A DNA stretch of 64,000 nt from Oleiagrimonas sp. (GTDB taxonomy: Bacteria; Pseudomonadota; Gammaproteobacteria; Xanthomonadales; Rhodanobacteraceae): positions 733 to 64,732 of the forward strand of contig DASSKC010000062.1 of NCBI GenBank assembly GCA_035690885.1, read 5' to 3'. The translations under genes and the position numbers were made by a program. The notes below the pieces were generated by a model that saw only the letters and a list, made by a program, of their open reading frames with translations, did no database searches and had not been told where the DNA came from. Positions 21,255-53,291 of the stretch are shown one piece after another; the first letter of the stretch is position 1, and each line of letters starts with the position of its first letter.

Positions 21255-21365
21255 GGAGCGGGTCCGGCAAATGAGTGTGGGGACCGATACTGTAAGGCGA
21301 TTGACCGCCGCTGTGTCAGGACGGGTCGTGATGAGGGCGCGAATCGGCGACAATGGGCGGTTTGA

Positions 21366-35624: not shown

Positions 35625-37322
35625 TTATCTGAAATCGGTATCGAAGTATTCGCCGTCGAGCCGTTCGTCCGGGGTGCGTTGCATTTCGGCGCGGCGCAGC
35701 TCGACGCGGCGGATCTTGCCGGACATGGTCTTGGGCAGGTCGTGGAACTCCAGCCGCCGGATGCGCTTGTACGGCGCCAGTCGCTCGCGGATGAACATGA
35801 GTATCTCGCCGGCCAGTTCGGTGCTCGCCTCGCGCCCGACGACCAGGGTGACGAACGCCTTGGGGACCGACATGCGCACCGGGTCCGGGCTGGGGATGAC
35901 GGCGGCTTCGGCCACTGCCGGATGCTCGATCAGCGCGCTTTCCAGTTCGAATGGGCTGATGCGGTAGTCCGACGACTTGAACACGTCGTCGGCACGACCG
36001 ACGTAGGTGATGTAGCCGTCGGCATCGCGTGAACCGACGTCGCCGGTTCGGTAGTAGCCGTCGGAGCCGATGTGACGCGTGTGCTCGGGATCGTCCGCGT
36101 ATCCCAGCATCAGGCCCAGCGGGCGCGGGTCCGGAGCCAGCGAGATCTCGCCTTCGTCGGCCCGGTTGCCGTCAATGTCCAGCAGTTCGATGCGATAGCC
36201 GGGCGCCGGCCGCCCCATCGAACCCGGAACCAGCTTCTGACCGGGGCCGTTGCAGGCGATGGCCGTGGTTTCGGTCTGGCCGTAGCCGTCGCGGATGCTC
36301 AGCCCCCAGGCCTTTTCCACTTGCGAGATCACCTCGCTGTTGAGCGGCTCGCCGGCGCTGGCCAGCTCACGCAGCTTGACCTTGCGCGCCGCCAGATCCT
36401 GCTGGATGAGCATGCGCCAGACGGTCGGCGGCGCGCACATCGTGGTGACCTCGTGATCGACCATCGTGTCGAGCAGGCCGGCGGCGTCAAAACGCGGGCT
36501 GTTGTAGATGAACACGGTGGCGGCGGCATTCCAGGGCGCGAACAGGCAGCTCCAGGCATGCTTGGCCCAACCCGGCGAGCTGACGTTGAGGTGGATGTCG
36601 CCGGGCTGGATGCCGACCCAGTACATCGTCGACAAATGCCCGACCGGGTAGCTCTGGTGCGAATGCATGACCAGCTTCGGTTTGGAGGTGGTGCCCGAGG
36701 TGAAGTACAGCAGCATCGGGTCGTCCGCGTGCGTCGGCGCGTCCGGACTGAAGCTGTCGGGCGCGTTGGCCGATTCGTTGAAGTCGTGCCAGCCGGCGAC
36801 AGCGTCACCCACCGCGATGCGTGTGAAGCTGCGGTCGATATCGTCGAATGCACCGGTCTGGTTGGCATCCACGATGGCATGACTGACTTGGCCGCGTTGC
36901 ATGCGGTCGGCCAGATCGTTGCCGTGCGCCAGCATGGTGGTCGGCACTACCACGGCACCCAGTTTCATCACCGCCAGGGTGGCTTCCCACAGCGGCACCA
37001 CGTTGCCCAGCATCAGCAATACGCGCTCGCCGCGCCTGACGCCCAGCGAGCGCAGGTGATTGGCAACCTGATTGGAACGTGCCGACAGCTCGCCGAAAGT
37101 GCGACGCTGCTCGCTGCCGTCGGCATCGACCAGCCACAACGCCGTGCGCGTGGCGGTATCACCTTGTGCCAGGCTGTCGAAGTAGTCCAGCGCCCAGTTG
37201 AACCGGTCCAGTTGCGGCCAGCGAAAGTCGCGGCAGGCGCGGGCCTGGTCGGTGCGGTGTTCGAGGAGAAAGTCGCGTGCGGCAATGAATCGCTGCAAGG
37301 ATGTGCTGGATTCGGGCATCAT
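35625..37322 (-). CDS. AMP-forming acyl-CoA synthetase / AMP-binding enzyme
   Basis: AMP-binding motif YFTSGTTSKPK, GYGQTET, YRTGD, and C-terminal PKTMSGKIRR. The start is uncertain (ATG at 37322 or 37319). Confidence 0.85.
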   Translation of the reverse strand: MMPESSTSLQRFIAARDFLLEHRTDQARACRDFRWPQLDRFNWALDYFDSLAQGDTATRTALWLVDADGSEQRRTFGELSARSNQVANHLRSLGVRRGERVLLMLGNVVPLWEATLAVMKLGAVVVPTTMLAHGNDLADRMQRGQVSHAIVDANQTGAFDDIDRSFTRIAVGDAVAGWHDFNESANAPDSFSPDAPTHADDPMLLYFTSGTTSKPKLVMHSHQSYPVGHLSTMYWVGIQPGDIHLNVSSPGWAKHAWSCLFAPWNAAATVFIYNSPRFDAAGLLDTMVDHEVTTMCAPPTVWRMLIQQDLAARKVKLRELASAGEPLNSEVISQVEKAWGLSIRDGYGQTETTAIACNGPGQKLVPGSMGRPAPGYRIELLDIDGNRADEGEISLAPDPRPLGLMLGYADDPEHTRHIGSDGYYRTGDVGSRDADGYITYVGRADDVFKSSDYRISPFELESALIEHPAVAEAAVIPSPDPVRMSVPKAFVTLVVGREASTELAGEILMFIRERLAPYKRIRRLEFHDLPKTMSGKIRRVELRRAEMQRTPDERLDGEYFDTDFR

Positions 37323-37432
37323 TTTCTCTGCTGATGAATACCGTTTCATTAGAGCACTCGGAACGTGGTCCGACAATCGACCGGGTGCGGGCCATCGTGG
37401 CATGGTTTTTTGCGTTCAACTGGAGAGGCGTC

Positions 37433-38045: not shown

Positions 38046-38771
38046 ATGCGCTCAGAGGCCCTTGCCAATCCGTTCAATGCCTTTCCCCGTCCGGCATCGC
38101 ATGCCGCGGGAACGTCTTCGCGGATGCGCGGAGCGTGGCTGGGTGCCGGCGCAACTTGTCTGGTCGCGCGCGCGGGCGACGACGCCATCGCGATGCCTGC
38201 GGGGCTGGACACCACGGCCGTCAATCGTGCCCGGCATGATATTGCCGGTCTGGACAGCGTGTGGCTGTTCGGCTACGGCTCGCTGATCTACAAGGTGGAT
38301 TTCCCTTATATCGAGCGTCGGCCGGCCGCCATTCACGGCTGGTCACGGCGCTTGTGGCAGGGCTCGCACGATCACCGCGGCACGCCCGAACATCCCGGGC
38401 GCGTGGCGACGCTGATTGCCGATCGCGACGCGACCTGCGTGGGCATGGCCTACCGCGTCGCGCCGTCCACCTTCGAACAGCTTGATCACCGCGAAAAAAA
38501 TGGCTATCTGCGTTTTGCCACGGAAATGGATTTTGCGGACGGCGCTCGCGCCGAAGGTCTGGTCTATGTCGCGGCCGAAGACAATGAGGCATGGTCGGGA
38601 CCGGCCAGCGAGCGCGACATCGCGCGTCAGGTGGCCGCGTCAACCGGTCCCAGTGGGCCGAACCGCGATTATGTCCTGTTGCTGGCCGATGCATTGCGTG
38701 ATCTGGACACCGAAGACGAGCACATTTTTGCCATCGAGTCCCACCTGCGCGCACTGATCGCGGCGAACTGA
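38046..38771 (+). CDS. chaC: Glutathione-specific gamma-glutamylcyclotransferase (ChaC family)
   Basis: WLFGYGSLIYK...HRGTPEHPGRVATL...REKNGY. The start is uncertain (GTG 38019 or ATG 38046). Confidence 0.8.
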   Translation: MRSEALANPFNAFPRPASHAAGTSSRMRGAWLGAGATCLVARAGDDAIAMPAGLDTTAVNRARHDIAGLDSVWLFGYGSLIYKVDFPYIERRPAAIHGWSRRLWQGSHDHRGTPEHPGRVATLIADRDATCVGMAYRVAPSTFEQLDHREKNGYLRFATEMDFADGARAEGLVYVAAEDNEAWSGPASERDIARQVAASTGPSGPNRDYVLLLADALRDLDTEDEHIFAIESHLRALIAAN

Positions 38772-38870
38772 CGTCCTTCAGCGGGCGGCGGGTATCGGGT
38801 TGCATCGACGTGATATGTTGCCTTTTACACGTTTGGCGGGGCCAGGGGGTTTCGCGGACCATGCAAGGAC

Positions 38871-40154
38871 ATGTCGATGGCGTTTCGCTGGTTGCCTGAT
38901 TCCGAGCAGTATGTGCACCCGCGCTTGTCATGGTTGCTGCAATACGCATTTGATGTGGTGTTGCATCGCATGTTCCGCGTCGATCACGACCTGCCCGCGG
39001 ATTTCAAGTTGCGACCGGGCACGATGATCATCTCCAACCACTTGCGTGACTCGGATGCGCCGCTGCTGGGTGCGCAGCTGTTTGCGCGCGATGGCGTGTA
39101 TTTTCGCGGAGCGTTGCCGTACTTCGCCATGCGCGAGGACCTGTTCCAGCACGGCGCCCTGGCCAACCTGCTCTACGCTTGCCCGCGGCCGTGGATCCAC
39201 CTGTTGCGCCTGGTGTCGTTGAACTGGCTGTTCGGCAGCGTGCGTACGTTGCCGATGCGTCGGCTGCGGGAGTTTACCTGGCACGACACGTTGCGCGAGC
39301 TCGAACGCGTCGGTCTTGGATCGAGTCACCCCGAGGCGGTCTTCAATGCCCGAGGCCTGCGCGAGTTGCGCCGGCAGCTGCACGAGTTGCCGCAGCGCGT
39401 GGATGCGATCAACCCCTGGCGGCTGGGCGTGTTGCGCGTGGGCAAGTGGGGGCTGCGGCGGCTGACGCGGCAGGCGCGCGAAAAGCTGGCGCCGGATTTT
39501 CGCGCCACCGTTGCAGACCAACTGGACGATCTGGCACGGCGACTGGATGCCGGCCATTGCCTGTATTTTTCTCCCGAGGGTCATGTGTCGCTTGATGGCC
39601 GCTTCGGCCGCATTCGTGCCGGGACGTGGCGGTTGGGCCGGATGACCGCACGGCCCTTGAACATGTTGCCGTTGACGCTGAGCTACGACCCGCTCGGGCC
39701 GGGGCGTACGCGGGCCATCGTGCGCATGGGCGACATGCTCGAGGATCTGGATCCGGGTGATCCGCGAACGCTCTCGCGGACGGTGCGGCAGACACTGGTC
39801 GCCCGTCGCGTGGTCACGCCCAGCCACCTGCTGGCGCAGTTTCTTTGTGTGCGTGAAACGCCGTTCAGTACGCGCGACCTCGTCGATTGGCTGGAGCAGG
39901 CCAAGCGTGCAACGGCGCAAACCGAACGCGAACTCGACCCGTTGTTTGGACGCATGCACACCGACGCGCTGGTTGACGAGCGCCTGCGCTGGTTGCGCCG
40001 CAAGCATCTGGTCAGGCTCGAGGGCGGGCGCTGGCACAATGATTGGGACCGCGAAGCGCCACCGGGCTGGCTGCAGGTGCACGGCATCGTGCGCTACCTT
40101 GCCAATGCGCTCAAGGACGTGGAGCCGGAGTTGGCGAGAGCGTTGTCATCATGA
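38871..40154 (+). CDS. Lysophospholipid/glycerolipid acyltransferase (PlsC/LPLAT) family protein with an extra C-terminal domain
   Basis: HX4D motif in ISNHLRDSD, and an FSPEG block (YFSPEGHVS). The roughly 150-aa C-terminal extension has no family I recognise. Confidence 0.7.
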   Translation: MSMAFRWLPDSEQYVHPRLSWLLQYAFDVVLHRMFRVDHDLPADFKLRPGTMIISNHLRDSDAPLLGAQLFARDGVYFRGALPYFAMREDLFQHGALANLLYACPRPWIHLLRLVSLNWLFGSVRTLPMRRLREFTWHDTLRELERVGLGSSHPEAVFNARGLRELRRQLHELPQRVDAINPWRLGVLRVGKWGLRRLTRQAREKLAPDFRATVADQLDDLARRLDAGHCLYFSPEGHVSLDGRFGRIRAGTWRLGRMTARPLNMLPLTLSYDPLGPGRTRAIVRMGDMLEDLDPGDPRTLSRTVRQTLVARRVVTPSHLLAQFLCVRETPFSTRDLVDWLEQAKRATAQTERELDPLFGRMHTDALVDERLRWLRRKHLVRLEGGRWHNDWDREAPPGWLQVHGIVRYLANALKDVEPELARALSS

Positions 40155-41122
40155 GTCTCGCATCGACATGGCGCGCGTTGTCCCGTCCGCGCGTCGTACT
40201 GCCCTTGCTGCTGGCGGCGGCATTGTTCCTGGTGGCCGTGAGCCTGGGTGACCTCGGCCAGGTGGTCAGTCGCGTCAAGGTGGTACCCACCTCGACCATG
40301 CTGCTGGCGCTGGGCTGCGCGGCGGTGTATCTGCTTTTCAAGGGTTTGCAGTTGCACTTGTTGCTCAACGACCTGGACGCGCATCCGGGCTGGCGCCGCT
40401 TTGCGCTGGCGTTTGCCGTGGGCGAGCTGGCGTTGACGTTTCCACTGGGCGTGTTTGCGCAAAATTGGGTGCTGGCCGGCAAGAAGGACATGCACTTCGG
40501 CCGCAGTTCGGCGGCAACCATCGTGATGCTGTTGATGGAGGTGGTGGTCGCGTTGTTGTGGCTGGCGATCGTCGGCATTCCCGGCTGGCCACCGGTGCAA
40601 GCGACGGCGGCGGCCATTCTCGCGTTGATGGCGGTGCTGGCTTTTGCCTTGTTGCGTTACAACCTGCTTGGACGTATGGCCGACCGGATCAGTCATCGCC
40701 ACGTGCATCGGTTGTTGTCCGAGGGTGTCGGTCTGCTGGACGGCTTGAGGCGGCTGGGCAAGTGGCGCGTGTTCGGCATCAATCTGCTGATCACGCCGGT
40801 CTATCTGGCGGCGCTGACCGCGGCGTTCTGGGTCATGGGGCACGGCATGGGTCTGCCTCGACTCGGCTACGCGGAAGCGACCACGATTTATGCCTTTGCA
40901 CTGGCCTCGGTGCTGGTCAGTGGCGGTGTGTTCGGGCAAATCGGACTGGTCGAGGTCATCGGCATGAGCACGGCGCATGCCTGGGGCATGAGCTACACCG
41001 AGGGGCTGGCGTTGATGCTGGGTTTCCGTTTGGCGTGGACCGGCGCGATGTGGCTTCTGAACGGTACCGTGGTGGTGGCGTTGTGGCGTTCGGTGCGGCT
41101 CGATCCGGGGCACACCGAGTGA
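40151..41122 (+). CDS. UPF0104 / lysyl-PG-synthase-TM ('flippase-like') membrane protein, HpnL-like by context
   Basis: 323-aa polytopic protein. ATGA overlap with the upstream acyltransferase. The UPF0104 family includes the hopanoid-associated HpnL. This call rests on architecture and context. Confidence 0.6.
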   Translation: MSLASTWRALSRPRVVLPLLLAAALFLVAVSLGDLGQVVSRVKVVPTSTMLLALGCAAVYLLFKGLQLHLLLNDLDAHPGWRRFALAFAVGELALTFPLGVFAQNWVLAGKKDMHFGRSSAATIVMLLMEVVVALLWLAIVGIPGWPPVQATAAAILALMAVLAFALLRYNLLGRMADRISHRHVHRLLSEGVGLLDGLRRLGKWRVFGINLLITPVYLAALTAAFWVMGHGMGLPRLGYAEATTIYAFALASVLVSGGVFGQIGLVEVIGMSTAHAWGMSYTEGLALMLGFRLAWTGAMWLLNGTVVVALWRSVRLDPGHTE

Positions 41123-41123
41123 T

Positions 41124-42206
41124 TCAGCCCTCGATCGCGGCCATGAAACGTGTCACGGACTGATCGCAGCTCATGTGCGGCACGCCCGGGCGCGCCAGTG
41201 CGCGCGGGATGTCGGTCGACAGATTCAGGTCTTTTTGCGTGGTCGACCAGACGTGGCCTTTGTCGTGATGGAACCGGGCCAGGTATTCCTGTTCGCTTTG
41301 CCCCGGCGTGGGCACGAACAAGGCCTGCTTGCCCAGCCCGGCCAGTTCCATGAGCGTGGTGTAACCGGAGCGGGTCATGACCAATCGCGCGCGCGCCAGC
41401 ATTTCGCTTTGCGCCTGGCGATCAAGGTAGCCGTAAACGGTGGCGTTGCCGATGTGGCGGCAATCATCCGCCCGTGAGGGTTGGCCCAGCGCGACCACGA
41501 TGCGGCCTTCCAGATGGGGCAACGCCTCGAGCACTTTTTGTGCCATCAGCGTGCGTTGCGGCTCGATGCCGGAAATCGAGAAAAAACAGTCGATGTCCGG
41601 CTCGGCGCTGGTCGGCGTGATGCTCGACAACGGTCCGATGTAGGCAAGTCGGTCGTCACCCCAGTCCAGGGCAGGGTCGTGGCCAAGGTCGCCGGACAGG
41701 CCGCGGTCGGTCTCCACATCGGGAATCAGGATGCGTTTGAAGTGACGGGTCAGGTTGCGTTGGCCGAATTCGACCAGGCGCTCGAGATGGCGCGGACGAC
41801 CGGGAATGATCTGTCGCAACGAGTGCAGCATGCAGTAGCTGGGAATGTCGTGCGACCACATGCCGAAGCGGCTGTCGGACACGATGCGATCATAACGATC
41901 ACGTGCGACGAGCTTCTCGACAAACCGATGCTCCTGCTTGAAACGGGTCATCACCACCGGCGTGGCCAGGCTCATGCGCACGTAGAACATCGCCGGCCAG
42001 CGGCTGAATGGTTTGGGGATGTCGTGGAAGCTGATGAAACGGCAGCTGGTTCCGAGCTCGGCCCGCAACAGCTGCAAGCCGTTGCCCTCGGCGCTGACGA
42101 CGGTGACCTCGTCACCCGCGTCGAGCAGGGCGCGGATCAGCACCAGAGAGCGTGTCGCGTGTCCCAATCCCCAGTCGTGTACGGCAAACAGCGTGCGGCG
42201 GGACAT
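41124..42206 (-). CDS. GT-B glycosyltransferase (GT28-N / MJ1255-like, COG1819-type)
   Basis: The N-terminus FAVHDWGLGHATRSLVLIRAL is typical of the MurG/UGT-like GT-B N-domain. The C-terminal region is GYTTLMELAGLGKQALFVPTPGQSEQ. Confidence 0.75.
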   Translation of the reverse strand: MSRRTLFAVHDWGLGHATRSLVLIRALLDAGDEVTVVSAEGNGLQLLRAELGTSCRFISFHDIPKPFSRWPAMFYVRMSLATPVVMTRFKQEHRFVEKLVARDRYDRIVSDSRFGMWSHDIPSYCMLHSLRQIIPGRPRHLERLVEFGQRNLTRHFKRILIPDVETDRGLSGDLGHDPALDWGDDRLAYIGPLSSITPTSAEPDIDCFFSISGIEPQRTLMAQKVLEALPHLEGRIVVALGQPSRADDCRHIGNATVYGYLDRQAQSEMLARARLVMTRSGYTTLMELAGLGKQALFVPTPGQSEQEYLARFHHDKGHVWSTTQKDLNLSTDIPRALARPGVPHMSCDQSVTRFMAAIEG

Positions 42207-42260
42207 GCGGATTCCTTTGATTGCGGGCGGACGATGCGGCGTGATTCCGGCGACACGTGC

Positions 42261-43145
42261 TCAGTGGTTGCGCTGGACGATGTACTCGGCCATCCAGCGC
42301 AGTGGGTCGGCACTGTCTCCCAGTGGCTGCAGCGCCTGCATGGCGTCGGAGTAGGCGCTGTCCGCGCGTTGCCGCGCCGCGTCCAGGCCCAGCAGCCCCG
42401 GCCATGTCGACTTGCCGTGCGCGGCGTCGGCGCCGCCGGCCTTGCCGGTCAGGTTTTCATCGCCTTCGACGTCGAGCAGATCGTCGCGGATCTGGAAGGC
42501 CAGGCCGATGCTGTCGGCGAAATCGCCCAGCCGGCGACGCACGCCGGCATCCAGGCCGGGCAGGGCATCGCAAGCGAGCGCGACGGCGGCACGGATGAGG
42601 CAGCCGGTCTTGCGGCGATTGAGTTCTTCCAGTTCCGCCAGTTCGACATGTCGCGATTCGGCTTCCAGATCCATGGTCTGGCCGCCGGTCATGCCCAACG
42701 ACCCCGTGGCTTGCGCCAGTGTGCGGACCATGCCGATGCGACTGGCCGACGCGCTCTTGCCATCGGCCAGTACTGCGAACGCCAGCGTTTGCAGGGCGTC
42801 GCCGGCGAGAATGGCGGCTGCCGTGCCGTAGGCCTTGTGCACGGTGGGACGGCCACGCCGAAGCGCGTCGTCATCCATCGAGGGCAAGTCGTCGTGTACC
42901 AGCGAAAAACCGTGGATCATCTCGACCGCACACGCCGGATCGTCCAGCCGGTCCGGATCGATGCCGAGAACTTCGCCGGTGGCATAGCACAGCAAGGGAC
43001 GTACGCGTTTGCCACCACCGAGAATGGCGTAGCGCATGGCCTCGTGGAGCGATGACGGTGCCGTGGCGGCGGCGGGGAGACGGGCGTCCAGTGCGCGCTC
43101 GGCGCGGTCGACGTAATCGGGTACCCGGCTCTCGAAACTGGTCAT
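42261..43145 (-). CDS. ispA: (2E,6E)-farnesyl diphosphate synthase (polyprenyl synthetase)
   Basis: FARM LVHDDLPSMDDDALRRG and SARM FQIRDDLLD. I start at MTSFES (ATG 43145). Confidence 0.9.
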   Translation of the reverse strand: MTSFESRVPDYVDRAERALDARLPAAATAPSSLHEAMRYAILGGGKRVRPLLCYATGEVLGIDPDRLDDPACAVEMIHGFSLVHDDLPSMDDDALRRGRPTVHKAYGTAAAILAGDALQTLAFAVLADGKSASASRIGMVRTLAQATGSLGMTGGQTMDLEAESRHVELAELEELNRRKTGCLIRAAVALACDALPGLDAGVRRRLGDFADSIGLAFQIRDDLLDVEGDENLTGKAGGADAAHGKSTWPGLLGLDAARQRADSAYSDAMQALQPLGDSADPLRWMAEYIVQRNH

Positions 43146-43342
43146 GCTGTCCACTGGTGGCCCTTTGCAAATGGCGATGCGGGTCATGGTGCAATGCGTC
43201 GTGGCGGATGTCCACTGGCCGGCATGCGGCGTATTCATTCAGTTGGTGTCCAGCGCCTGAAGCCGTTTGCTTGGTACCGTTTTTTTGTCGCAAGCGTTAT
43301 CGTATATCAGCGATACGTCAGCACACATGAGGAGTCAGCGTC

Positions 43343-44425
43343 ATGCGCATGTCCGTTGCCCTCGCTCCTTCTGCCAAGTATCTGCATGACTATCAGGACG
43401 ATATCCTGAAGAAGGTGTCGAGGACATTTGCCCTGACCATCCCGCAACTGCCCAAGCCGTTGCGACGGGTGGTCACCAATGCCTATCTGTTGTGCCGCAT
43501 TGCCGACACCATCGAGGACGAGTCGGCATTGTCGGTCGAGCAGAAGCAGCATTTCCACGAGCTGTTTTTGAGTGTGGCCGCTGGCGATGCCGATGCGGCG
43601 GCTTTCGCCGACACGCTGACACCGCTGCTGGCCAATGACGCACTGGAGGCGGAAAAGGACCTCATTGGCCACACCGATGCGGTGGTCGCGGTCACGCGTG
43701 GTTTCAACGACAACCAGCAGGCCGCCCTCAATCGATGCCTGACCGTGATGTGCCGCGGCATGCCGCGCTACGAACGTCACGCCAGCATCGAGGGGTTGAG
43801 CAACCAGGCGTCACTGGATCGTTATTGCTACTACGTCGCCGGTGTGGTTGGCGAGACGCTCACGGCGCTGTTCTGCGATTACTCCGAGTCCATCAATCGT
43901 CACCGCGAACGCATGATGCAGCTGGGTCTTTCCTTTGGCCAGGGACTGCAGATGGTCAACATCCTCAAGGACTTCTGGGAGGACCATGGGCGTGGCGTGT
44001 GCTGGTTGCCGCAGAATCTGTTTGCGCGGATGGGCGTCAATCTCGGCCAAGTCGACCGCAACCATTACCAGCCAGGCTTCGGCGAAGCCTACGCCAACCT
44101 GATCGGCGTTGCCTACACGCACCTGCGCAACGGGTTCGAGTACACGCTGATGATTCCCGAAAAGGAATCGGGCATTCGTCGCTTCTGCCTGGTCGCATTG
44201 GCGCTGGCCGTGCAGACGCTGCAGCGCATCCATGAGAATCCGGATTTCCGTTGCGGCAGCGATGTGAAAGTATCGCATCGCGTGGTGACCAATACGCTCA
44301 TCATGACGCGTCTGTTCGCCGGCTATGATCGTGTCCTGCGACGCTGGTTCGGGCGTCTCGGTCGCGGGCTGCCAATGCAGACGCTGGTGGCTGACTGGTC
44401 GGAGAAGTTGCGCCAGATACGTTGA
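43343..44425 (+). CDS. sqs: Squalene synthase (single-enzyme SQS type; squalene/phytoene synthase family)
   Basis: SRTFALTIPQLP, Asp-rich CRIADTIEDE and NILKDFWED. The gene lies immediately upstream of shc. Confidence 0.85.
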   Translation: MRMSVALAPSAKYLHDYQDDILKKVSRTFALTIPQLPKPLRRVVTNAYLLCRIADTIEDESALSVEQKQHFHELFLSVAAGDADAAAFADTLTPLLANDALEAEKDLIGHTDAVVAVTRGFNDNQQAALNRCLTVMCRGMPRYERHASIEGLSNQASLDRYCYYVAGVVGETLTALFCDYSESINRHRERMMQLGLSFGQGLQMVNILKDFWEDHGRGVCWLPQNLFARMGVNLGQVDRNHYQPGFGEAYANLIGVAYTHLRNGFEYTLMIPEKESGIRRFCLVALALAVQTLQRIHENPDFRCGSDVKVSHRVVTNTLIMTRLFAGYDRVLRRWFGRLGRGLPMQTLVADWSEKLRQIR

Positions 44426-44483: not shown

Positions 44484-46454
44484 ATGCGTGATGTCTCCGT
44501 GGAACCGTCCATGGCCACGGGCGGCGGGGCAGGGGAAGGTCTAGTGGACCGCCATCGTCTTGATGCCGCCATCGCCGCGACCCGCAACGCATTGCTGCAA
44601 AGTCAGCACGACAATGGCCATTGGTGCCACGAGCTGGAGGCCGATTGCACCATCCCGGCTGAGTACGTGTTGATGCTGCATTATTTCGGCGAGCGCGAAC
44701 CCGAACTGGAAGCGAAGATCGGCAACTACCTGCGGGCACGCCAGGGCAAGGACCATGGCTGGCCCTTGTACGAGTCGGGCGCGATGGACGTCAGTTGCAG
44801 CGTCAAGAGTTATTATGCGCTCAAGCTGATCGGCGACGATCCGGATGCCGAGCACATGCAACGGGCGCGCCAGGCGATTCGCGCGCGTGGCGGCGCGGCT
44901 CGGGCCAACGTGTTCACGCGCATGACGCTGGCGTTGTTCGGCGAGTTGCCCTGGCGCGGCGTTCCGGTGGTGCCGGTGGAGCTGGTGTTGCTGCCGCGCT
45001 GGTTTCCCGTCCATCTGCTGAAGATTTCCTATTGGTCGCGCACCGTGGTCACGCCCCTGGCTGTTTTGTGCAGCCTCAAGCCGCGGGCGGCCAATCCACT
45101 TGGCGTCGGCATCCGTGAACTGTTCATCACGGCGCCCGAAGACGAGCGTCATTACTTCGATCCGCCGCGCACGCTGCTGGCGCGGTTGTTCCTGTGGCTG
45201 GACCGTTTTGCACACGTACTGGATGCGCATCCGCCCAAGTGGTTGCGTCGGCGCGCGGTCAAGCGTGCCATGGACTGGATGCTGCCGCGGTTGAATGGCG
45301 AGGACGGGCTCGGGGCCATTTTCCCGGCCATGGTCAATGCCTGCGAGGTGCTGGCGCTGCTGGGTTACGACCAGAACGAATCGCCCTTGCGCGAAGCGCG
45401 TCAGTCGGTGCGCAAGCTGTTGATCGAGAAGGACACCGAAGCATATTGCCAGCCCTGCGTGTCACCCGTGTGGGACACGGGTCTGGGCTGTCTGGCCATG
45501 CAGGAGGATGCGCGCTCGCATCCGCTGCCCGAGCTGCAGCAGTCCGTGACTCGGGCACTTGATTGGTTGCACGAGAAACAATTGACCGACGAGGACGGCG
45601 ACTGGACGCTGACCCATCCCCGGCTGCCCGGCGGCAGCTGGGCGTTCCAGTACAACAACGCGGCGTATCCCGATCTGGACGACACCGCGGTCATGGCCTG
45701 GACCATGCTTCGCGGAGGTGCCGACGGAGCCGACACCAGATACGCCGAGTCCATCCAGCGCGCGGCCGATTGGCTGATCGGCATGCAGTCGCGCAACGGC
45801 GGTTTTGCCGCGTTCGATTCGGACAACACGCATTACTGGCTCAACCAGATCCCCTTTGCCGATCATGGCGCACTGCTCGACCCGCCGACCAGCGATGTCA
45901 GCGCACGCGTGCTGACTTTTCTGTCTGCCCTGGCCAGACCCGGGGACAAGCGCGCCCGTACTCGGGTCCTCGCGTACTTGCGCAACAGCCAGACCGACGC
46001 GGGTTGCTGGTTCGGGCGCTGGGGTACCAACTACATCTACGGCACCTGGTCGGCTTTGATGGCGCTGGAGGCCGCTGGCGTCGATCACGGTGATGCCGCG
46101 GTGCGGCGCGGGGTGGCGTGGCTGAAGCAGTGCCAGCGTGCCGATGGCGGCTGGGGCGAGACCAACGATACCTACATGGATCCGGGCCTCGCCGGCACCG
46201 ATTCGCGCAGCAATGCCGCACAGACCGCGTGGGCGCTGCTGGGTCTGATGGCAAGCGGCGAGGGCGGCAGCGAGGCGGTCGCGCGCGGCGTACAGTGGCT
46301 CGTGCAGACGCAGGACCAAGACGGCCGCTGGCACGACAAGGGTTTCAACGCACCGGGCTTTCCGCGCGTGTTCTATCTCAAGTATCACGGTTACAGCCAT
46401 TATTTTCCGTACTGGGCGCTGGCACGTTATCGCCGGTGCACGGTCGATGGCTGA
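44484..46454 (+). CDS. shc: Squalene-hopene cyclase
   Basis: Catalytic DxDDTA (PDLDDTAV) and several QW repeats (QRADGGWGE, QSRNGGFA, QDQDGRWHD). SD 'ggaggagga' lies before ATG 44484. Confidence 0.95.
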   Translation: MRDVSVEPSMATGGGAGEGLVDRHRLDAAIAATRNALLQSQHDNGHWCHELEADCTIPAEYVLMLHYFGEREPELEAKIGNYLRARQGKDHGWPLYESGAMDVSCSVKSYYALKLIGDDPDAEHMQRARQAIRARGGAARANVFTRMTLALFGELPWRGVPVVPVELVLLPRWFPVHLLKISYWSRTVVTPLAVLCSLKPRAANPLGVGIRELFITAPEDERHYFDPPRTLLARLFLWLDRFAHVLDAHPPKWLRRRAVKRAMDWMLPRLNGEDGLGAIFPAMVNACEVLALLGYDQNESPLREARQSVRKLLIEKDTEAYCQPCVSPVWDTGLGCLAMQEDARSHPLPELQQSVTRALDWLHEKQLTDEDGDWTLTHPRLPGGSWAFQYNNAAYPDLDDTAVMAWTMLRGGADGADTRYAESIQRAADWLIGMQSRNGGFAAFDSDNTHYWLNQIPFADHGALLDPPTSDVSARVLTFLSALARPGDKRARTRVLAYLRNSQTDAGCWFGRWGTNYIYGTWSALMALEAAGVDHGDAAVRRGVAWLKQCQRADGGWGETNDTYMDPGLAGTDSRSNAAQTAWALLGLMASGEGGSEAVARGVQWLVQTQDQDGRWHDKGFNAPGFPRVFYLKYHGYSHYFPYWALARYRRCTVDG

Positions 46455-47118
46455 TATCGGCGTGGTGGCGGCCTTGCCGGCGGAAGCCGCGACATGGCCG
46501 GCGGACAGCGGATTTCAGGTCGTCGTGGCCGGTCCGGGCATGCAACGCGCCACGGCTGCCGCGCGAGGCCTGTTGGCGGCGGGAGCCACGAGGTTGATCA
46601 GCTGGGGCGTGGCCGGTGGCCTGACGGCTCGACTGCGGCCGGGTGATCTGGTGCTCGCCGATCGGGTGGCATCCGCCGACGGCGTGCAGATACCCGATCG
46701 AGACTGGTGCAGCGAGATGGTCGCGAGGCTGCAACCGCTGGAATGTCCGCTCACGGTCGGAAGCGTCTGGACGCATGCGCATGCGGTCACATCACTCGCG
46801 GAAAAACAACGGCTGGCGGCCAATGGCCATGCCATCGTCGACATGGAGGCCGCCGCCGTGGCGTCCGTGGCGCGTGCTGCCGGCGTGCCGTTCGTGGTCA
46901 TCAAGGCGGTGTGCGACCCGGCCGGTCGCGCGCTTCCGGCTTGCGCGCCACGGTTGTTGCACGCCGATGGTCGCGTGCGGGTCAGCGCCGTGGCCATGAC
47001 CCTGGCAAGTGGTCCGCGCATGTGGCGCCATCTGCGGCAAATGCACCGCGATTTCGATGCTGCTTGCGGCGGTTTGCGCAAAGCGGCCGCATGCTTGTCG
47101 GTATCATGTCCGCCATGA
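46447..47118 (+). CDS. hpnG: Hopanoid-associated phosphorylase/nucleosidase HpnG (PNP_UDP family)
   Basis: DMEAAAVA nucleosidase motif. 8-nt overlap with shc. The position between shc and hpnA is the canonical one. Confidence 0.85.
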   Translation: MADIGVVAALPAEAATWPADSGFQVVVAGPGMQRATAAARGLLAAGATRLISWGVAGGLTARLRPGDLVLADRVASADGVQIPDRDWCSEMVARLQPLECPLTVGSVWTHAHAVTSLAEKQRLAANGHAIVDMEAAAVASVARAAGVPFVVIKAVCDPAGRALPACAPRLLHADGRVRVSAVAMTLASGPRMWRHLRQMHRDFDAACGGLRKAAACLSVSCPP

Positions 47119-48116
47119 GCGACTTGGTACTGGTCACCGGCGCCAACGGTTTTGTCGGTTCGGCCGTGGTGCGCAACCTGCTTGAGGCGGGTTATCGGGT
47201 GCGTGCGCTGGTACGTGCCAGCAGCCGCATGGACAACCTTGCCGGTGTGGATGCCGAGCCGGTGATCGGCGATTTGCGTGACCCCGATTCGCTGGCCGAC
47301 GCCATGCGCGGTTGTCGGGGCGCGTTCCATGTGGCGGCCGACTATCGCCTGTGGACGCCCGATGCCGCGGCCACCGAAGCCATGTACGCCAGCAATGTCG
47401 AGGGCAGCCGCAACGTCCTGCGTGCGGCGTCGCGGGCCGGCGTCGCGCGCATCGTCTATACCAGCAGCGTGGCCACGCTGGGTCTGCATGCCGACGGGTC
47501 CCCGGCGGACGAAACCACGCCGGTCACGTTGGACGCCATGATCGGAGATTACAAGCGCTCCAAGTATCTGGCCGAACAGGCAGTCGAGGAGTTGGCCGAG
47601 TCCGAACATCTCGACGTGGTCACCGTGCATCCGGCGGCACCGGTCGGTCCGCGCGACATCAAGCCGACACCGACCGGGCGCATGGTGCTGGACGCCGCGC
47701 GCCGGCGCATGCCGGTGTACGTCGATACCGGCCTGGACATCGTGCATGTCGACGATGTGGCCGAAGGTCACCGCCTGGCATACGAGCGCGGCACCGGCGG
47801 CCGGCACTACATCCTCGGCGGCGACAATCTCAGTCTGCGCGAGATTTTGATCGAGGTGGCCGTGATCACCGGTCGGCATGCCCCCTGGATGCGCATTCCG
47901 CATGCGCTGGTACTGCCGCCGGCGCATCTCGCCGAGCTCCTGGCCCGGTTCAGCAAGCGTGAACCGGCGGTGACCGTGGCTGGCGCCCGGTTGGCCCGAA
48001 AGCACATGTATTTTTCGCATCAGCGCGCCGCATTCGAGCTCGGATATGCCCCCGGACCGGCCCGCGAGGCGCTTGCCGATGCGGTGAAATGGTATGCCGA
48101 GAACGGCCGGTTATGA
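47115..48116 (+). CDS. hpnA: Hopanoid-associated NAD-dependent sugar epimerase/dehydratase HpnA
   Basis: VLVTGANGFVGSAV Rossmann motif and YKRSK (YxxxK). ATGA overlap with hpnG. Confidence 0.85.
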   Translation: MSDLVLVTGANGFVGSAVVRNLLEAGYRVRALVRASSRMDNLAGVDAEPVIGDLRDPDSLADAMRGCRGAFHVAADYRLWTPDAAATEAMYASNVEGSRNVLRAASRAGVARIVYTSSVATLGLHADGSPADETTPVTLDAMIGDYKRSKYLAEQAVEELAESEHLDVVTVHPAAPVGPRDIKPTPTGRMVLDAARRRMPVYVDTGLDIVHVDDVAEGHRLAYERGTGGRHYILGGDNLSLREILIEVAVITGRHAPWMRIPHALVLPPAHLAELLARFSKREPAVTVAGARLARKHMYFSHQRAAFELGYAPGPAREALADAVKWYAENGRL

Positions 48117-48270: not shown

Positions 48271-49263
48271 ATGACAGCGATTGCGCAAGCGCAACCCAAT
48301 ATCGCGCTGGTCAAATACTGGGGCAAGCGGGATACGGCACTCAACCTGCCTGCGGCCGACTCGCTGTCCATCACCCTGGCGTCCCTGTCCACGCGGACCG
48401 AAGTCACTTTCGACCCGACGCTTGAACACGATGTGCTGCTGCTCAATGGCGCGCCCGATGCGCGGACGCTGGCGCGTGCCAGTGCGTGTCTGGACGTGCT
48501 GCGCGAGCGCGCCGGCAATCCGTGCCGTGCGCATGTGGATACGCGCAACAACTTTCCCACCGCTGCGGGACTGGCCTCATCGGCGTCGGGCTTTGCCGCG
48601 CTGGTGATGGCGGCCAACGCGGCGCTTGGCTTGCCGGAAGATCGACCATGGCTGTCCACGATCGCCCGTCAGGGATCGGGGTCGGCGGCGCGTTCGCTGT
48701 ATGGCGGCTTCGTGCACATGCATGCCGGAAGCCGCGAAGATGGTGCCGACGCGCATGCCGAGCCGTTGCTGGAAGCCGGGGCCTGGCCGCTCGAAGTCGT
48801 GGTCGCCGTGACCACGCGCAAGGCCAAGGCCGTGGGCTCCGGTGAAGGCATGGAGCGGACGCGACGTACCTCGCCGTTCTACGGCCAATGGGCCGGAACG
48901 GTCGCCGACGACATCGTGCTGGCGCGCGCGGCGGTTGCGGCACGCGACTTCGAGGCACTGGCCGCTGTCAGCGAGCACAGCTGCTTGAAAATGCATGCGT
49001 TGATGTTGTCCAGCCAGCCGCCGTTGATGTACTGGTCGCCGGCAACGCTGGCCTGCATGCAGATGGTTCGCCAATTGCGCGAGCGTGATGGTCTGGGCGT
49101 GTTTTTCACCGTCGATGCCGGTCCCCAGGTCAAGGCCGTTTGCCTGCCGGCCGATGCCGCGAAAGTCGCGGCCGCGTTGCGCGAGGTGTCCGGCGTGGAA
49201 GCGATTCTGCGCAGCGCATTGGGCAAGGGGGCGCGCAACGTTCCCATGGCCGAGGTGGCCTGA
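48271..49263 (+). CDS. mvaD: Diphosphomevalonate decarboxylase
   Basis: NIALVKYWGKRD, GLASSASGFAAL (GHMP motif), FTVDAGPQV. SD 'aaggag' lies upstream. Confidence 0.9.
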   Translation: MTAIAQAQPNIALVKYWGKRDTALNLPAADSLSITLASLSTRTEVTFDPTLEHDVLLLNGAPDARTLARASACLDVLRERAGNPCRAHVDTRNNFPTAAGLASSASGFAALVMAANAALGLPEDRPWLSTIARQGSGSAARSLYGGFVHMHAGSREDGADAHAEPLLEAGAWPLEVVVAVTTRKAKAVGSGEGMERTRRTSPFYGQWAGTVADDIVLARAAVAARDFEALAAVSEHSCLKMHALMLSSQPPLMYWSPATLACMQMVRQLRERDGLGVFFTVDAGPQVKAVCLPADAAKVAAALREVSGVEAILRSALGKGARNVPMAEVA

Positions 49264-50324
49264 TGCACGCGGTGCATGCCAGCGCCCCGGCCAAGCTGGT
49301 TGTCGCCGGCGACTACGCGGTGCTCGAAGGCGCCCCGGCAGTCGTCATCGCGCTGGATCGGCGCGCGCATGTCGAAGTCGAGTCTTTGGCGGACACGGAT
49401 GCCGCGTTCTGCATTGACGCCCCGGACCTCGACATTCGTGGTGCGCAAGGCCGGCTGGAGGGCGAGCGCATCACCTGGTCGTCCGACGCCGATCGTTTGA
49501 CGCTGGTGACCGCGGTGCTGCAATACCTGGCGCAGCACGGCGCGGCGCCGCGTTCCGCGCACGTCACGCTGGACACGCAAGCGTTCTTTGCCGGCGACGG
49601 CGCCAAGCTCGGCCTGGGTTCCAGCGCGGCCCTGACCGTCGCGTTGACGGCCGCCGTGAACACGGCCAACGATGCAGAGGCGGGCGATCTTGCGGCCATG
49701 ATCGGCATGCATCGGCGCATGCAGGGCGGTCGTGGCAGTGGCCTGGATATTGCCGCCGCCTTGATGGGGGGCACGTTGATTTACCGCTTGAGCGATGGAC
49801 AAGCGCAAACCGAGCGTGCCCGCTGGCCGCACGAGCTGGGCCTGTGCTGCGTCTGGTCCGGACGCTCGGCTTCGACGGGCTCGGCATTGGCGCAACTGGC
49901 CGATTGGCGGTCGCGGCATACGGCTGCTTACGCCACCCACATGCAGGCCTTGTCGGATGCTGCCGCCGAGGTGGCTGTGGCCCTGCGTGCAGGCAGCGGC
50001 GCCGACATGGCCACGGGCATGTCCGAGTATGCCGATATGCTGGCGCGCTTCGGCGAAACCGTCGGCATCGACATCGTGTCGGCTGAACACCGCGCACTGG
50101 CCGCCATGGCCAATGACTGCGGCGTGGTGTACAAAAGTTGCGGTGCCGGCGGTGGCGACGTCGGCATGGCCGTGGCCGTGGATGATGATCGACTTTCCCA
50201 TTTCGCACGGCAGGCTGCGAGCGCCGGTTTCCGCATCGTGGAAACCGGTATCGACGAGCGCGGCCTGTCGGTGCAAACAGCAAACACGAGTCACAGGAGA
50301 CAACCATGGACAACGTACGCGTGA
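49263..50324 (+). CDS. mvaK2: Phosphomevalonate kinase (GHMP kinase)
   Basis: APAKLVVAGDYAVLEG, GLGSSAALTVAL, KSCGAGGGD. TGATG overlap with mvaD. Confidence 0.8.
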   Translation: MHAVHASAPAKLVVAGDYAVLEGAPAVVIALDRRAHVEVESLADTDAAFCIDAPDLDIRGAQGRLEGERITWSSDADRLTLVTAVLQYLAQHGAAPRSAHVTLDTQAFFAGDGAKLGLGSSAALTVALTAAVNTANDAEAGDLAAMIGMHRRMQGGRGSGLDIAAALMGGTLIYRLSDGQAQTERARWPHELGLCCVWSGRSASTGSALAQLADWRSRHTAAYATHMQALSDAAAEVAVALRAGSGADMATGMSEYADMLARFGETVGIDIVSAEHRALAAMANDCGVVYKSCGAGGGDVGMAVAVDDDRLSHFARQAASAGFRIVETGIDERGLSVQTANTSHRRQPWTTYA

Positions 50325-52615
50325 ATGATGGCGAACGCGATCCCGGAGCCAGGACATCGACATCGCGCTCGGCACGCTTTCCGGGCTTCTACAAGCTGTC
50401 GGTTGCCGAGCGGGTCAGGCTGCTGAGCGGGCGCGGACTGCTGTGCCGCGACGATTTTCGTGCGCTGGCCAGTGGGCGCCACAAGCTGACGGTGGACAAG
50501 GCCGACAAGATGATCGAGAACGTCATCGGCGTACTCGGCATGCCGGTCGGACTGGGCCTGAACTTCCTCATCAACGACAAGGACTACGTGATACCGCTCG
50601 CCGTCGAGGAGCCCTCCATCGTTGCGGCCCTCAGTTCGGCGGCCAAGCTGGCGCGCAAGGGTGGCGGGTTTCGCACCCGCAGCACCAAGCCGATCCTGAT
50701 CGGGCAGGTGCAGGTGGTGGACGTGGCGCACGCGAGCAAGGCGCAGGCCGCGCTGCTGCGGCGCAAGGACGAGCTCATCAACCTCGCCAACAGCCTGCAT
50801 CCGAACATGGTCGCACGTGGCGGCGGCGTCGAGGACGTCGAGGTCATGGTCCATTCCGCGCCCGACGGCAAGCGTGACATGGTCGTCGTGCATCTGCTGG
50901 TCAACACCTGTGACGCCATGGGCGCCAACCTGGTCAATACCATGTGCGAGGGCGTGGCGCCGCTGGTGGAAACCATTACCGGCGGCAAGGTGTTCCTGCG
51001 CATCCTGTCCAATCTGACCGACCGTGCGCTGGTGTGGGCCGAGGCCGTGATTCCGGTCGAGGCGCTGGCCGGCAAGGGCCGCGACGGTGCCGAAGTGCGC
51101 GACGGCATCATCCTGGCCAACGACCTGGCCATCGTCGATCCGTACCGTGCGGCAACCCACAACAAAGGCGTGATGAATGGCGTCGATGCCGTGGCCTTGG
51201 CCACCGGCAACGATTGGCGCGCGCTGGAAGCGGCCGCGCATGCGTATGCCGCGCGCGGCAAGAGCTACACGTCGCTGACGCGCTGGTACAAGAACGACAA
51301 CGGCGATCTGGTCGGCAGCATCGAAATGCCGATGAAGGTCGGTACCGTGGGCGGCAACCTGCAGTCCAACCCGACTGTCGGCATCAACCACCGCCTGCTC
51401 GGCATCGACAGCGGCCGCGAGTTGGCCGAGGTGATGGGCGCCGTGGGTCTGGCGCAGAATTTCTCGGCCCTGCGTGCGCTGGTCACCGACGGCATCCAGC
51501 AGGGCCACATGACCTTGCACGCGCGCAGCGTGGCAATGGCGGCCGAGGCGACACCGGAGATGTTCGATACCGTGGTCGAGCGGCTGCTCGAAGACGGTGA
51601 GATCAAGATCTGGAAGGCGCGCGAAATCATCGCCGAACTGGGTGGCAAGGCGCGTCCGCGCCTGGTCGCCGGCAAGGACAAGCGCGAGGACGAGGCGTCC
51701 TGGTCGGCCGGTCACGGCAAGATCATCCTGCTTGGCGAACATGCCGTGGTACATGGCCGCCATGCCATCGCCGCGCCGGTGCCGCTGGCGATCAAGGCGC
51801 GCGTCGATGATGCGGACGAAGGCGTCACCTTGATGATCCCGCGCTGGGGCGTCGAGCAGCGCCTGCAACAGCACCTCAACCATCCGGGATCGTTCCTGCA
51901 GTCGCTGGCCATGTTGATCGACAAGCTCGAGCTGGGCGATCGGGCGATGGAAGTGCGCGTGTATCCCAATGTGCCGCGTGCCATGGGGCTGGGTGGTTCG
52001 GCGGCGTTGGCCGTGGCCGTGATCCGTGCGCTGAACCGGCATTTCAGTCTGTCGTTGAGCGAGGCGGATATTTGCCAGCTGGCTTTCGAGTGCGAAAAGA
52101 TCGCGCATGGCACGCCATCGGGTATCGACAACACCGTCGCCACGTACGGCAAGCCGTTGCTGTACCGCAGTGGCAATCCGGCGGAAGTGGAAACCCTGCA
52201 TCTGACCGAGTCGTTGCCACTGGTCATCGGCCTGTCCGGTACCGAAAGCCTGACCGCCAAGATGGTGGCGCGCGTTCGCCGCGCGTGGGAAAACAACAAG
52301 CCGCTTTACGAGCGCATCTTCGACGAAATCGACACTTTGACCATGCATGCGCTGGATGCGCTCAAGGCACACGATCTGGCCCAACTGGGCGAGTTGATGA
52401 ATGTCTGCCAGGGCCAGCTCAATGCGCTGCAAGTGTCCAGCTGGGAGCTTGAGGAATTGATGCAGATTGCACGCGACAACGGCGCCACCGGCGCCAAGCT
52501 GACCGGTGGCGGCGGTGGCGGTTCGATGATCGCGCTGTGCCCCGATGGCACGCAACAAGTAGTGCAGGCGATGCACAACGCGGGCTACCAGGCGATGGAG
52601 GTGCGCTTTGGCTGA
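50306..52615 (+). CDS. Apparent bifunctional class II HMG-CoA reductase (about aa 1-445) fused to mevalonate kinase (about aa 468-769)
   Basis: The HMGR part has EEPSIVAA, DAMGANLVNTMCE, THNKGVMNG, GTVGG, QQGHMTLHAR. A charged linker GGKARPRLVAGKDKREDEASWSA follows. The MK part has GHGKIILLGEHAVVHG, PRAMGLGGSAALAVAV, KLTGGGGGGSMIAL. It is a single uninterrupted 769-aa ORF. Confidence 0.85.
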   Translation: MDNVRVNDGERDPGARTSTSRSARFPGFYKLSVAERVRLLSGRGLLCRDDFRALASGRHKLTVDKADKMIENVIGVLGMPVGLGLNFLINDKDYVIPLAVEEPSIVAALSSAAKLARKGGGFRTRSTKPILIGQVQVVDVAHASKAQAALLRRKDELINLANSLHPNMVARGGGVEDVEVMVHSAPDGKRDMVVVHLLVNTCDAMGANLVNTMCEGVAPLVETITGGKVFLRILSNLTDRALVWAEAVIPVEALAGKGRDGAEVRDGIILANDLAIVDPYRAATHNKGVMNGVDAVALATGNDWRALEAAAHAYAARGKSYTSLTRWYKNDNGDLVGSIEMPMKVGTVGGNLQSNPTVGINHRLLGIDSGRELAEVMGAVGLAQNFSALRALVTDGIQQGHMTLHARSVAMAAEATPEMFDTVVERLLEDGEIKIWKAREIIAELGGKARPRLVAGKDKREDEASWSAGHGKIILLGEHAVVHGRHAIAAPVPLAIKARVDDADEGVTLMIPRWGVEQRLQQHLNHPGSFLQSLAMLIDKLELGDRAMEVRVYPNVPRAMGLGGSAALAVAVIRALNRHFSLSLSEADICQLAFECEKIAHGTPSGIDNTVATYGKPLLYRSGNPAEVETLHLTESLPLVIGLSGTESLTAKMVARVRRAWENNKPLYERIFDEIDTLTMHALDALKAHDLAQLGELMNVCQGQLNALQVSSWELEELMQIARDNGATGAKLTGGGGGGSMIALCPDGTQQVVQAMHNAGYQAMEVRFG

Positions 52616-53189
52616 GGCATTGACGCAAACCGATCCGGTGGTCTCGTTTGATTCGGAACAATTGATCCTGGTCAATTCGGACGACCACGAAATAGGGTAC
52701 AAGGACAAAGGTGCCTGTCATGACGGTCACGGCATCCTGCATCGCGCCTTTTCGTTGTTCGTGTTCAATCGAAACGGCGAGTTGCTGTTGCAGCAGCGCG
52801 CGAAGGACAAGCGCCTGTGGCCCGGTTACTGGGCCAATACGTGCTGCAGCCACCCGCGCCGCGGCGAAAGCATGGACGATGCCACGGCCAGGCGTCTGGC
52901 CGAGGAAATGGGCATGCGCTGCGACCTGCGCTACCTGTACAAGTTCGAATACCAGGCCGATTATGGTGATCTGGGTGCCGAACACGAGTTGTGCCGGGTT
53001 TACGTGGGCCAGTCCGACAGCCCCGTATCGGTCAACGTCAACGAGGTCGAAGCCTGGCGCTTCGTCTCGGCGGCAGAGCTGGACGAGGAAATCGAGGCCC
53101 ATCCGGAGCGTTTCACGCCATGGCTGAAAATGGAATGGCAACGATTGCGCAATGAGTTCAATGCAGTTTTGCCACTGAGTAGTGGCTGA
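52608..53189 (+). CDS. idi: Isopentenyl-diphosphate delta-isomerase, type 1 (Nudix)
   Basis: HRAFSLFVFN..GELLLQQRA..K..WPGYWANTCCSHP..GE. TTG start with 'ggag' 7 nt upstream. 8-nt overlap with the fusion ORF. Confidence 0.85.
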   Translation: MAEALTQTDPVVSFDSEQLILVNSDDHEIGYKDKGACHDGHGILHRAFSLFVFNRNGELLLQQRAKDKRLWPGYWANTCCSHPRRGESMDDATARRLAEEMGMRCDLRYLYKFEYQADYGDLGAEHELCRVYVGQSDSPVSVNVNEVEAWRFVSAAELDEEIEAHPERFTPWLKMEWQRLRNEFNAVLPLSSG

Positions 53190-53291
53190 ACCCGTTGATA
53201 CGGTTGTTTTGACTACACCCTGGTATGCGCCTAGGCTGAAAACCGGACGAGAGAAAAAACATTTTCGAATATCGCATTGAAGGAGGTCATC

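Follow-up and report, generated by a model that had tools for sequence, protein, structure and literature searches.

In the 64,000-nt stretch of Oleiagrimonas sp. DNA shown above, which is called the window here and whose numbering is used for all window positions, three adjacent genes encode an acyltransferase (AT), a UPF0104 membrane protein and a glycosyltransferase of the GT-B fold. We have found that this trio is linked to hopanoid genes, and that the linkage has been kept through repeated rearrangements of the gene order. In our reading, the trio is an accessory cassette that tailors and translocates hopanoids; we give this reading about an even chance of being right. We favour it because the linkage persists through the rearrangements and in a distant lineage, because squalene-hopene cyclase (SHC) is rare in the taxonomic background of the carriers, and because of the fold of the GT-B enzyme, the third motif of the AT and the predicted topology of the three proteins. 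The original prediction had proposed a module that makes and exports acylated and/or glycosylated hopanoids. It is partly supported: the protein families, in outline, and the hopanoid linkage stand, the linkage on far firmer ground than a single window could give, while the product itself can only be proposed.

Hopanoid genes beside the trio

To describe the linkage, we used two scans. The scan of GTDB species genomes seeded with the AT gave 57 loci, all of them in metagenome-assembled genomes (MAGs) and nearly all in Rhodanobacteraceae. The metagenome scan seeded with the GT-B gave 80 further loci. The pooled 129 GT-B copies fell into 62 clusters at 90% identity, 10 of which were too short to judge, so that 52 were informative. 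A copy was considered hopanoid-adjacent when it stood beside shc, hpnH, hpnI, hpnG, hpnA or sqs, and the absence of such a neighbour was accepted only with a total flank of at least 8 kb. It turned out that the module is hopanoid-adjacent in 45 of the 52 informative clusters (87%). Among the 57 AT-seeded loci, the trio, or the part of it that the contig holds, adjoins hopanoid genes wherever the flanks allow, except for one locus (L058), where a truncated AT stands beside an hpnH fragment. Most of the 80 GT-B-seeded metagenome loci are hopanoid-adjacent as well. SHC was reported in 1.7% of 1087 Xanthomonadales genomes (Table S5, bioRxiv 10.1101/2025.07.29.667474). Despite this rarity, the AT-bearing loci of Rhodanobacteraceae with enough flank adjoin the hopanoid cluster, L058 again excepted.

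At least 10 gene orders, inverted forms among them, show the adjacency; therefore, the linkage has been kept through many rearrangements. If a forward gene is marked by > and a reverse gene by <, the window's own order is AT> UPF> <GTB <ispA sqs> shc>. The commonest order is hpnH> hpnI> AT> UPF> <GTB, in which the end of hpnI is 1 nt ahead of the AT start, and hpnI lies directly upstream of the AT in most related loci. We also found hpnH> AT> UPF> <GTB, AT> UPF> <GTB sqs> shc>, <shc <sqs AT> UPF> <GTB and AT> UPF> <GTB <hpnI <hpnH, as well as further orders in which ispH replaces the mevalonate genes.

The GT-B is always paired with UPF0104, also at the loci without an AT, and it is the most conserved member of the trio. 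A distant lineage, whose shc is 36–38% identical and which uses the DXP pathway (dxs is in the cluster), has no AT. Its gene order is GT-B> <UPF0104, type-2 IDI, DUF116, shc, hpnA, hpnG, hpnH, ispA, dxs. Because this lineage is hopanoid-linked without the AT, the GT-B and UPF0104 form the core of the module, and the AT is accessory to it. In one contig of the lineage (L143, 8808–10469), UPF0104 and shc are separated by the genes of a DUF116 protein of 204 amino acids (aa) and of an FMN_dh-type protein. The latter is probably the type-2 IDI, and DUF116 may be another gene associated with hopanoid clusters.

One locus (L006) looked like an AT-UPF0104 pair without a GT-B. This was rejected, since the GT-B is on the same contig by ispA-sqs-shc, with an arn operon in between. 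In this contig of a Rhodanobacteraceae MAG (L149, 11150–20134), the insertion consists of the arn operon (ArnT, ArnE/F, ArnB, ArnC, parts of ArnA, ArnD) and a 364-aa gene, and it separates the GT-B from UPF0104 by about 10.8 kb. Insertions of 1–2 kb at the GT-B/UPF0104 junction were also seen in L014, L050 and L076.

Gene models, families and folds

The coordinates and motifs that the original prediction gave for the trio are all present in the sequence, base for base. The AT stop TGA (40152–40154) overlaps the UPF0104 start ATG (40151–40153) in an ATGA, that is by 4 bp, and the translational coupling proposed from it is confirmed. Of 108 loci, 46 have an overlap of 4 bp and another 46 one of 7 bp, so that 92 have one or the other. 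The GT-B gene does converge on UPF0104 with a stop-to-stop distance of 1 bp (41122–41124), and the GT-B start at 42206 does follow the ispA stop at 42261 on the same strand, 54 bp further downstream. UPF0104 and GT-B overlap at their 3' ends in 98 of 118 loci (median 33 bp, maximum 90 bp); this tail-to-tail overlap is highly conserved, and the pair in the window is 1 bp apart. A sigma-70 consensus scan of positions 38500–43500 found no promoter. Terminator-like sites in the same region exceeded shuffled controls by no more than about 1.5 standard deviations, all those listed were on the + strand, and none was at the 1-bp UPF0104/GT-B junction.

The open reading frames (ORFs) of the trio are real genes and not GC-rich artefacts, because four lines of data agree. 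Their codon-position GC is like that of other window genes (GC3 0.79–0.80, GC2 0.46–0.48). They have Pfam matches, and at E ≤ 0.001 the searches returned 114 homologues of the AT, 139 of UPF0104 and 3359 of the GT-B. The AlphaFold (AF2) models are confident, with a pLDDT of 92.6 for the AT and 89.5 for the GT-B.

The AT carries the HX4D motif as NHLRDSD at aa 56–62 and the PEG motif (motif III) as YFSPEG at aa 231–236. Its family is small, with 589 representatives at E ≤ 0.001 among 1.84 billion. In the family alignment, N-H-x-R-x-x-D, R-E-D, WGLRR and E-G-x-x-S are invariant, and N54, H55, R57 and D60 do not vary across 52 AT sequences. The AT scores 19.9 bits against PF01553, which is under the gathering threshold of 23 bits; many orthologues have a precomputed PF01553 match, and the L133 copy scores 44 bits. 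NCBIfam models gave no match for the AT at E ≤ 10, and PDB sequence searches gave marginal matches only. By structure, the best Foldseek match in the PDB is human GPAT1 (8e4y; E 3.9e-7, TMq 0.52, 487 aligned columns for a 425-aa query), and the second is PlsC (5kym). The match to GPAT1 spans essentially the full length of the AT, including regions outside the PlsC core. The modelled AT has a GPAT1/PlsB-like fold throughout and is not a plain PlsC. The earlier description as a PlsC-type acyltransferase thus fits the HX4D and PEG motifs, but not the fold or the PF01553 score below the cut-off. A C-terminal domain of the AT had also been called unassigned; it is covered by the full-length match and therefore belongs to the GPAT/PlsB-like architecture. 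The more unusual feature of the AT is an Arg-rich insertion of about 140 aa between motifs II and III, which contains the invariant PMRRxREF and WGLRRL.

Motif III of the AT family reads PEG-x-[I/V]-S, compared with EGTRS in PlsC, and when the AT is aligned with PlsC 5kym by HMMER, it has I opposite the Arg of EGTRS. This Arg is known as the residue that binds the phosphate of the acceptor. Its absence would fit a neutral hydroxyl acceptor.

Fusions of the AT with a GT-B were looked for among its relatives and none was found. The only fusions are those of two remote relatives, P0462 (812 aa) and P0473 (762 aa), which have an N-terminal MFS transporter domain (E ~1e-25). A similar combination of MFS transporter and acyltransferase is that of LplT/Aas, which serves lysolipid retrieval. 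Together with the conserved AT-UPF0104 translational coupling, these fusions hint at a pair in which UPF0104 would return a lyso- or de-acylated envelope lipid to the cytoplasmic leaflet for re-acylation by the AT, and in which the GT-B would have a role of its own. We consider this quite improbable. The fusions are remote and involve an MFS transporter rather than PF03706, and the GT-B stays with UPF0104 even where the AT is missing. From this constant pairing it follows that the function of UPF0104 tracks the GT-B and not the AT.

The family assignment of the UPF0104 protein was confirmed, with 58 bits against PF03706 at a gathering threshold of 33.4 (residues 16–295, profile positions 2–293 of 302). 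PF03706 is the sole domain of this 323-aa protein, which has no C-terminal aminoacyl-phosphatidylglycerol synthase domain like that of MprF. Its hydropathy profile has about 8 hydrophobic segments. The original prediction had pointed to the hopanoid-associated HpnL within this family. Membership in PF03706 holds, but the tie to HpnL does not: no NCBIfam model matched at E ≤ 10, hence not TIGR03476 (HpnL) either, and none of the 120 orthologues is named HpnL, the only name being 'lysylphosphatidylglycerol synthase domain-containing protein'. For both reasons, we regard the protein as a PF03706 member distinct from HpnL. It is hardly credible, then, that the gene is simply hpnL and the cassette the annotated hpnI/J/K/L system with nothing new in it. 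The shared Pfam family, the same kind of neighbourhood and the reported enrichment of HpnL near shc (bioRxiv 10.1101/2025.07.29.667474) speak for such an identity. Besides the missing HpnL match and name, two things speak against it: the GT-B and the AT are without a counterpart in the hpnA–P nomenclature (PMC12583986), and hpnJ and hpnK are absent from all the locus neighbourhoods listed.

The GT-B has the sequence WGLGHATRS at aa 12–20. Its fold assignment was upheld by Pfam, with 37.8 bits against PF04101 (GT28 C-terminal domain, cut-off 22) and 32.5 bits against PF13528, which it also passed, and by GT1 enzymes as the top structural matches. Two NCBIfam models gave scores far under their cut-offs, namely TIGR01133 MurG (29.7 bits, cut-off 250) and TIGR00661 (MJ1255/VC2487; 35 bits, cut-off 195.9), the latter over the C-terminal third only. 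In the Foldseek search, the top 28 matches are GT1 enzymes with TMq of about 0.6 and 11–18% identity. The neighbours in fold include UGT109A1, YojK, YjiC, OleD-type enzymes and CalG, which act on triterpenoids, macrolides and other hydrophobic aglycones. MurG (7d1i) ranks 29th and the sterol glucosyltransferase UGT51 (5gl5) 47th, with 11% identity; the list contains no monogalactosyldiacylglycerol (MGDG) synthase. By its fold, then, the modelled GT-B appears to be nearest to the GT1 glycosyltransferases of triterpenoids, macrolides and sterols. Two residues that do not vary across 33 GT-B sequences, H16 and D111, form a putative catalytic dyad. The best 120 of the 3359 hits are 59–100% identical. 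A tblastn search of the GT-B and UPF0104 against 72,556 plasmids gave no match, so that no annotated copy or copy from a cultured organism was obtained.

A possible mechanism and the genes around the trio

No transmembrane segment was predicted in the AT and none was found in the GT-B. Together with the roughly 8 segments of UPF0104, this would fit synthesis in the cytoplasm followed by flipping. In the proposed mechanism, the GT-B, soluble or peripheral, would work on the cytoplasmic side of the inner membrane with a nucleotide sugar as donor. There it would glycosylate the polyol side chain of an extended hopanoid, either bacteriohopanetetrol (BHT) or, where hpnI is present, the N-acetylglucosaminyl-BHT made by HpnI. 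With acyl-ACP or acyl-CoA as donor, the GPAT1-fold AT would attach a fatty acyl group to a free hydroxyl, either of the glycoside or of the side chain. The translationally coupled UPF0104 protein would then carry the product over to the periplasmic leaflet, in the way that lysyl-phosphatidylglycerol is moved by the homologous domain of MprF. The data establish the gene models, families, folds, motifs and topology, the conserved coupling and the hopanoid linkage, whereas we infer which acceptor, sugar and acyl donor are used, in which order the steps run and in which direction the lipid is flipped. It is possible, with the balance somewhat against it, that the GT-B/UPF0104 pair, with the AT where present, represents an undescribed branch of bacteriohopanepolyol (BHP) synthesis. 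Such a branch would make O-acylated hopanoid glycosides with a dedicated flippase, would be widespread in uncultured Gammaproteobacteria of acid soil and mine drainage, and would be a source of composite BHPs.

A number of observations weigh against the hopanoid cassette. At the level of gene neighbourhoods, which is the level of our comparison, rather than of whole genomes, 45 clusters are hopanoid-adjacent and 7 stand alone. The hopanoid link made in the original prediction therefore holds for the 45, in at least 10 arrangements, and fails in the 7 of 52 informative clusters whose orthologous trio has no hopanoid gene in flanks of about 2.5–10 kb per side. These include MAGs called Salinisphaera sp., Nevskiaceae and Casimicrobiaceae. 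The stand-alone AT is 41–44% identical to the window AT, which is as close as the hopanoid-linked type-2 copies. SHC is found in 21.9% of Nevskiales and 35.8% of Burkholderiales (Table S5, bioRxiv 10.1101/2025.07.29.667474), and at these rates the stand-alone MAGs may or may not have shc elsewhere. All carriers are MAGs or metagenome contigs; the searches turned up neither a cultured carrier nor lipid data. With many loci drawn from a single family, the counts lack phylogenetic independence. In structure, the AT is nearest to a glycerol-3-phosphate acyltransferase. No hpnI homologue was found anywhere in the window, and no hpnJ or hpnK among the window genes scanned. Strong as it is, the link to hopanoids is not universal.

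The stand-alone trios also suit a general membrane-glycolipid module, which we consider unlikely. In such a module, the GT-B would act on diacyl- or monoacylglycerol like the GT28 MGDG synthases, the AT on glycerol or on the sugar, UPF0104 would flip the product, and the hopanoid adjacency would result from a shared envelope-remodelling island. The best fold matches of the AT, GPAT1 and then PlsC, agree with this, as does the match of the GT-B to the GT28 C-terminal domain. The arn operon, which belongs to lipid A modification with aminoarabinose (Ara4N), is inserted in the trio of one MAG and indicates that the region gathers genes for envelope lipids. At the stand-alone trio of L133, a PF04185 phosphoesterase of the phospholipase C/acid phosphatase family (13547–14410) is divergent from the AT; this neighbour was seen once only, and the related L135 does not have it. 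However, unless a function is shared, it is difficult to account for a hopanoid adjacency of 87% that spans at least 10 arrangements and extends to a distant lineage. The motif III Arg that serves glycerol-phosphate acceptors is absent in the AT. The top fold matches of the GT-B are GT1 enzymes acting on small molecules and triterpenoids, with no MGDG synthase listed and MurG only 29th. The hopanoid cassette is the reading that we prefer.

The genes around the trio in the window are listed in Table 1. The ispA gene and the GT-B are probably co-transcribed; every locus that has the architecture of the window keeps them side by side, and both are divergent from the hopanoid core operon. A single 360-aa SQS_PSY enzyme makes squalene, in place of the three-gene HpnC/D/E route (TIGR01559 114 bits, under the cut-off; HpnC and HpnD weaker). 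C30-carotenoid glycoside esters derived from squalene were considered as a product and rejected, as there is no desaturase or CrtN-like gene in the neighbourhoods listed. The longest shc ORF, from 44325, would overlap the squalene synthase gene by about 100 nt, and therefore the true start is probably near 44484. A mevalonate block (48271–53189) lies inside the hopanoid cluster of this apparent member of Rhodanobacteraceae, while ispH (LytB) is found at the equivalent place in related lineages (L148). After hpnH comes an AcrAB-TetR unit.

Table 1. Coordinates of the trio and of the hopanoid and mevalonate genes in the window
Gene or product	Position	Strand	Basis
AT (acyltransferase)	38871–40154	+	ORF 427 aa
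UPF0104 / LPG_synthase_TM membrane protein	40151–41122	+	ORF 323 aa, PF03706
GT-B glycosyltransferase	41124–42206	-	ORF 360 aa, PF04101 + PF13528
ispA, farnesyl diphosphate synthase	42261–43145	-	NF045485 FPPsyn 332.7 bits (cut-off 275); ORF start possibly up to 43238
squalene synthase	43343–44425	+	SQS_PSY 177.8 bits
shc	~44484–46454	+	TIGR01507 780 bits
hpnG-like	46447–47118	+	TIGR03468 150 bits, under the cut-off of 187
hpnA	47106–48116	+	TIGR03466 466 bits
MVD	48271–49263	+	Pfam
GHMP kinase (PMK-like)	within 49140–50324	+	Pfam
HMG-CoA reductase/GHMP-kinase gene, 769 aa	50306–52615	+	Pfam; orthologues combine both domains
NUDIX (idi-like)	52608–53189	+	Pfam
hpnH	53277–54410	+	Radical_SAM + DUF3463

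Upstream of the AT are a ChaC-like gene and an acyl-CoA synthetase gene (35625–37403), neither of which is conserved beside the module elsewhere. Attachment of hopanoids to lipid A (HoLA) was rejected as a role, since this acyl-CoA synthetase is not conserved there. At 17277–20083, a gene for a DUF2868 protein is followed by one for a GTPase with DUF3482 (MMR_HSR1 domain); they are unrelated to the trio. Next to them, on the - strand and 16 kb from the cluster, is an ORF of 759 aa (20067–22343), whose class-III aminotransferase domain is confined to residues 384–751; its N-terminal half may be a GC-rich extension of the ORF. HpnO is also a class-III aminotransferase.

Comparison with known systems

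Hopanoids rank among the major membrane lipids of bacteria and serve as geological biomarkers. For most 'composite' hopanoid side chains the genes are unassigned, and the trio offers three concrete candidates for new head groups. It also provides a testable model of how a UPF0104 protein cooperates with an enzyme that modifies hopanoids, and such a model could point to a role for HpnL. Should the genomes of the stand-alone copies prove to lack shc, a new glycolipid pathway would be defined by the module instead. In recent surveys, hpnA, hpnB and hpnL are still without an assigned function, and a GT-B or acyltransferase partner is not named (bioRxiv 10.1101/2025.07.29.667474; PMC12583986). In the literature on genes for acylated or glycosylated BHPs and on the hopanoids of Rhodanobacter, we found no description of a GT-B/UPF0104/AT module. 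This suggests that, while the tailoring of hopanoid side chains is known as such, this combination of known enzyme superfamilies is undescribed.

The closest known process is the HpnI/HpnK/HpnJ pathway, which converts BHT to BHT-GlcNAc, then to BHT-glucosamine and to the BHT cyclitol ether (PMC12583986). The trio would share with it a cluster-encoded sugar decoration of the BHT polyol chain. However, HpnI belongs to family GT2 (Pfam Glycos_transf_2 and Glyco_transf_21), whereas the trio enzyme has the GT-B fold. The trio also adds an acyltransferase, has no hpnK or hpnJ nearby and, in the window, has no hpnI.

The UPF0104 protein resembles HpnL (TIGR03476) in that both are multi-pass membrane proteins of the PF03706 superfamily encoded in hopanoid clusters. 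Unlike HpnL, it does not match TIGR03476, its gene is always tail-to-tail with the GT-B gene, and it is usually coupled to the acyltransferase. With MprF the trio has in common a PF03706 membrane domain coupled to a cytoplasmic lipid-modifying enzyme, and so the logic of making a lipid inside and then flipping it. In contrast to MprF, it has no aminoacyl-phosphatidylglycerol synthase domain, the partner enzymes are encoded by separate genes, and the lipid is probably a different one. The AT has the HX4D and EG motifs of GPAT1/PlsB and PlsC, and its overall fold is like theirs beyond the core. It differs from them by an identity of only about 10–12%, the insertion of about 140 aa, the replacement of the motif III Arg by I or V and the lack of a transmembrane segment.

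Steryl glycosides are made by GT1 sterol glucosyltransferases such as UGT51, and cholesteryl glucoside is acylated in Helicobacter. The reactions proposed for the trio are similar: glycosylation of a polycyclic triterpenoid alcohol by a GT-B enzyme, followed by O-acylation, and UGT51 is among the structural matches of the GT-B. The differences are that the acceptor of the trio would be a side-chain polyol and not a 3-beta-hydroxyl, and that the AT has a GPAT/PlsC fold. The putative O-acylated hopanoid glycosides would be a bacterial counterpart of acylated steryl glycosides.

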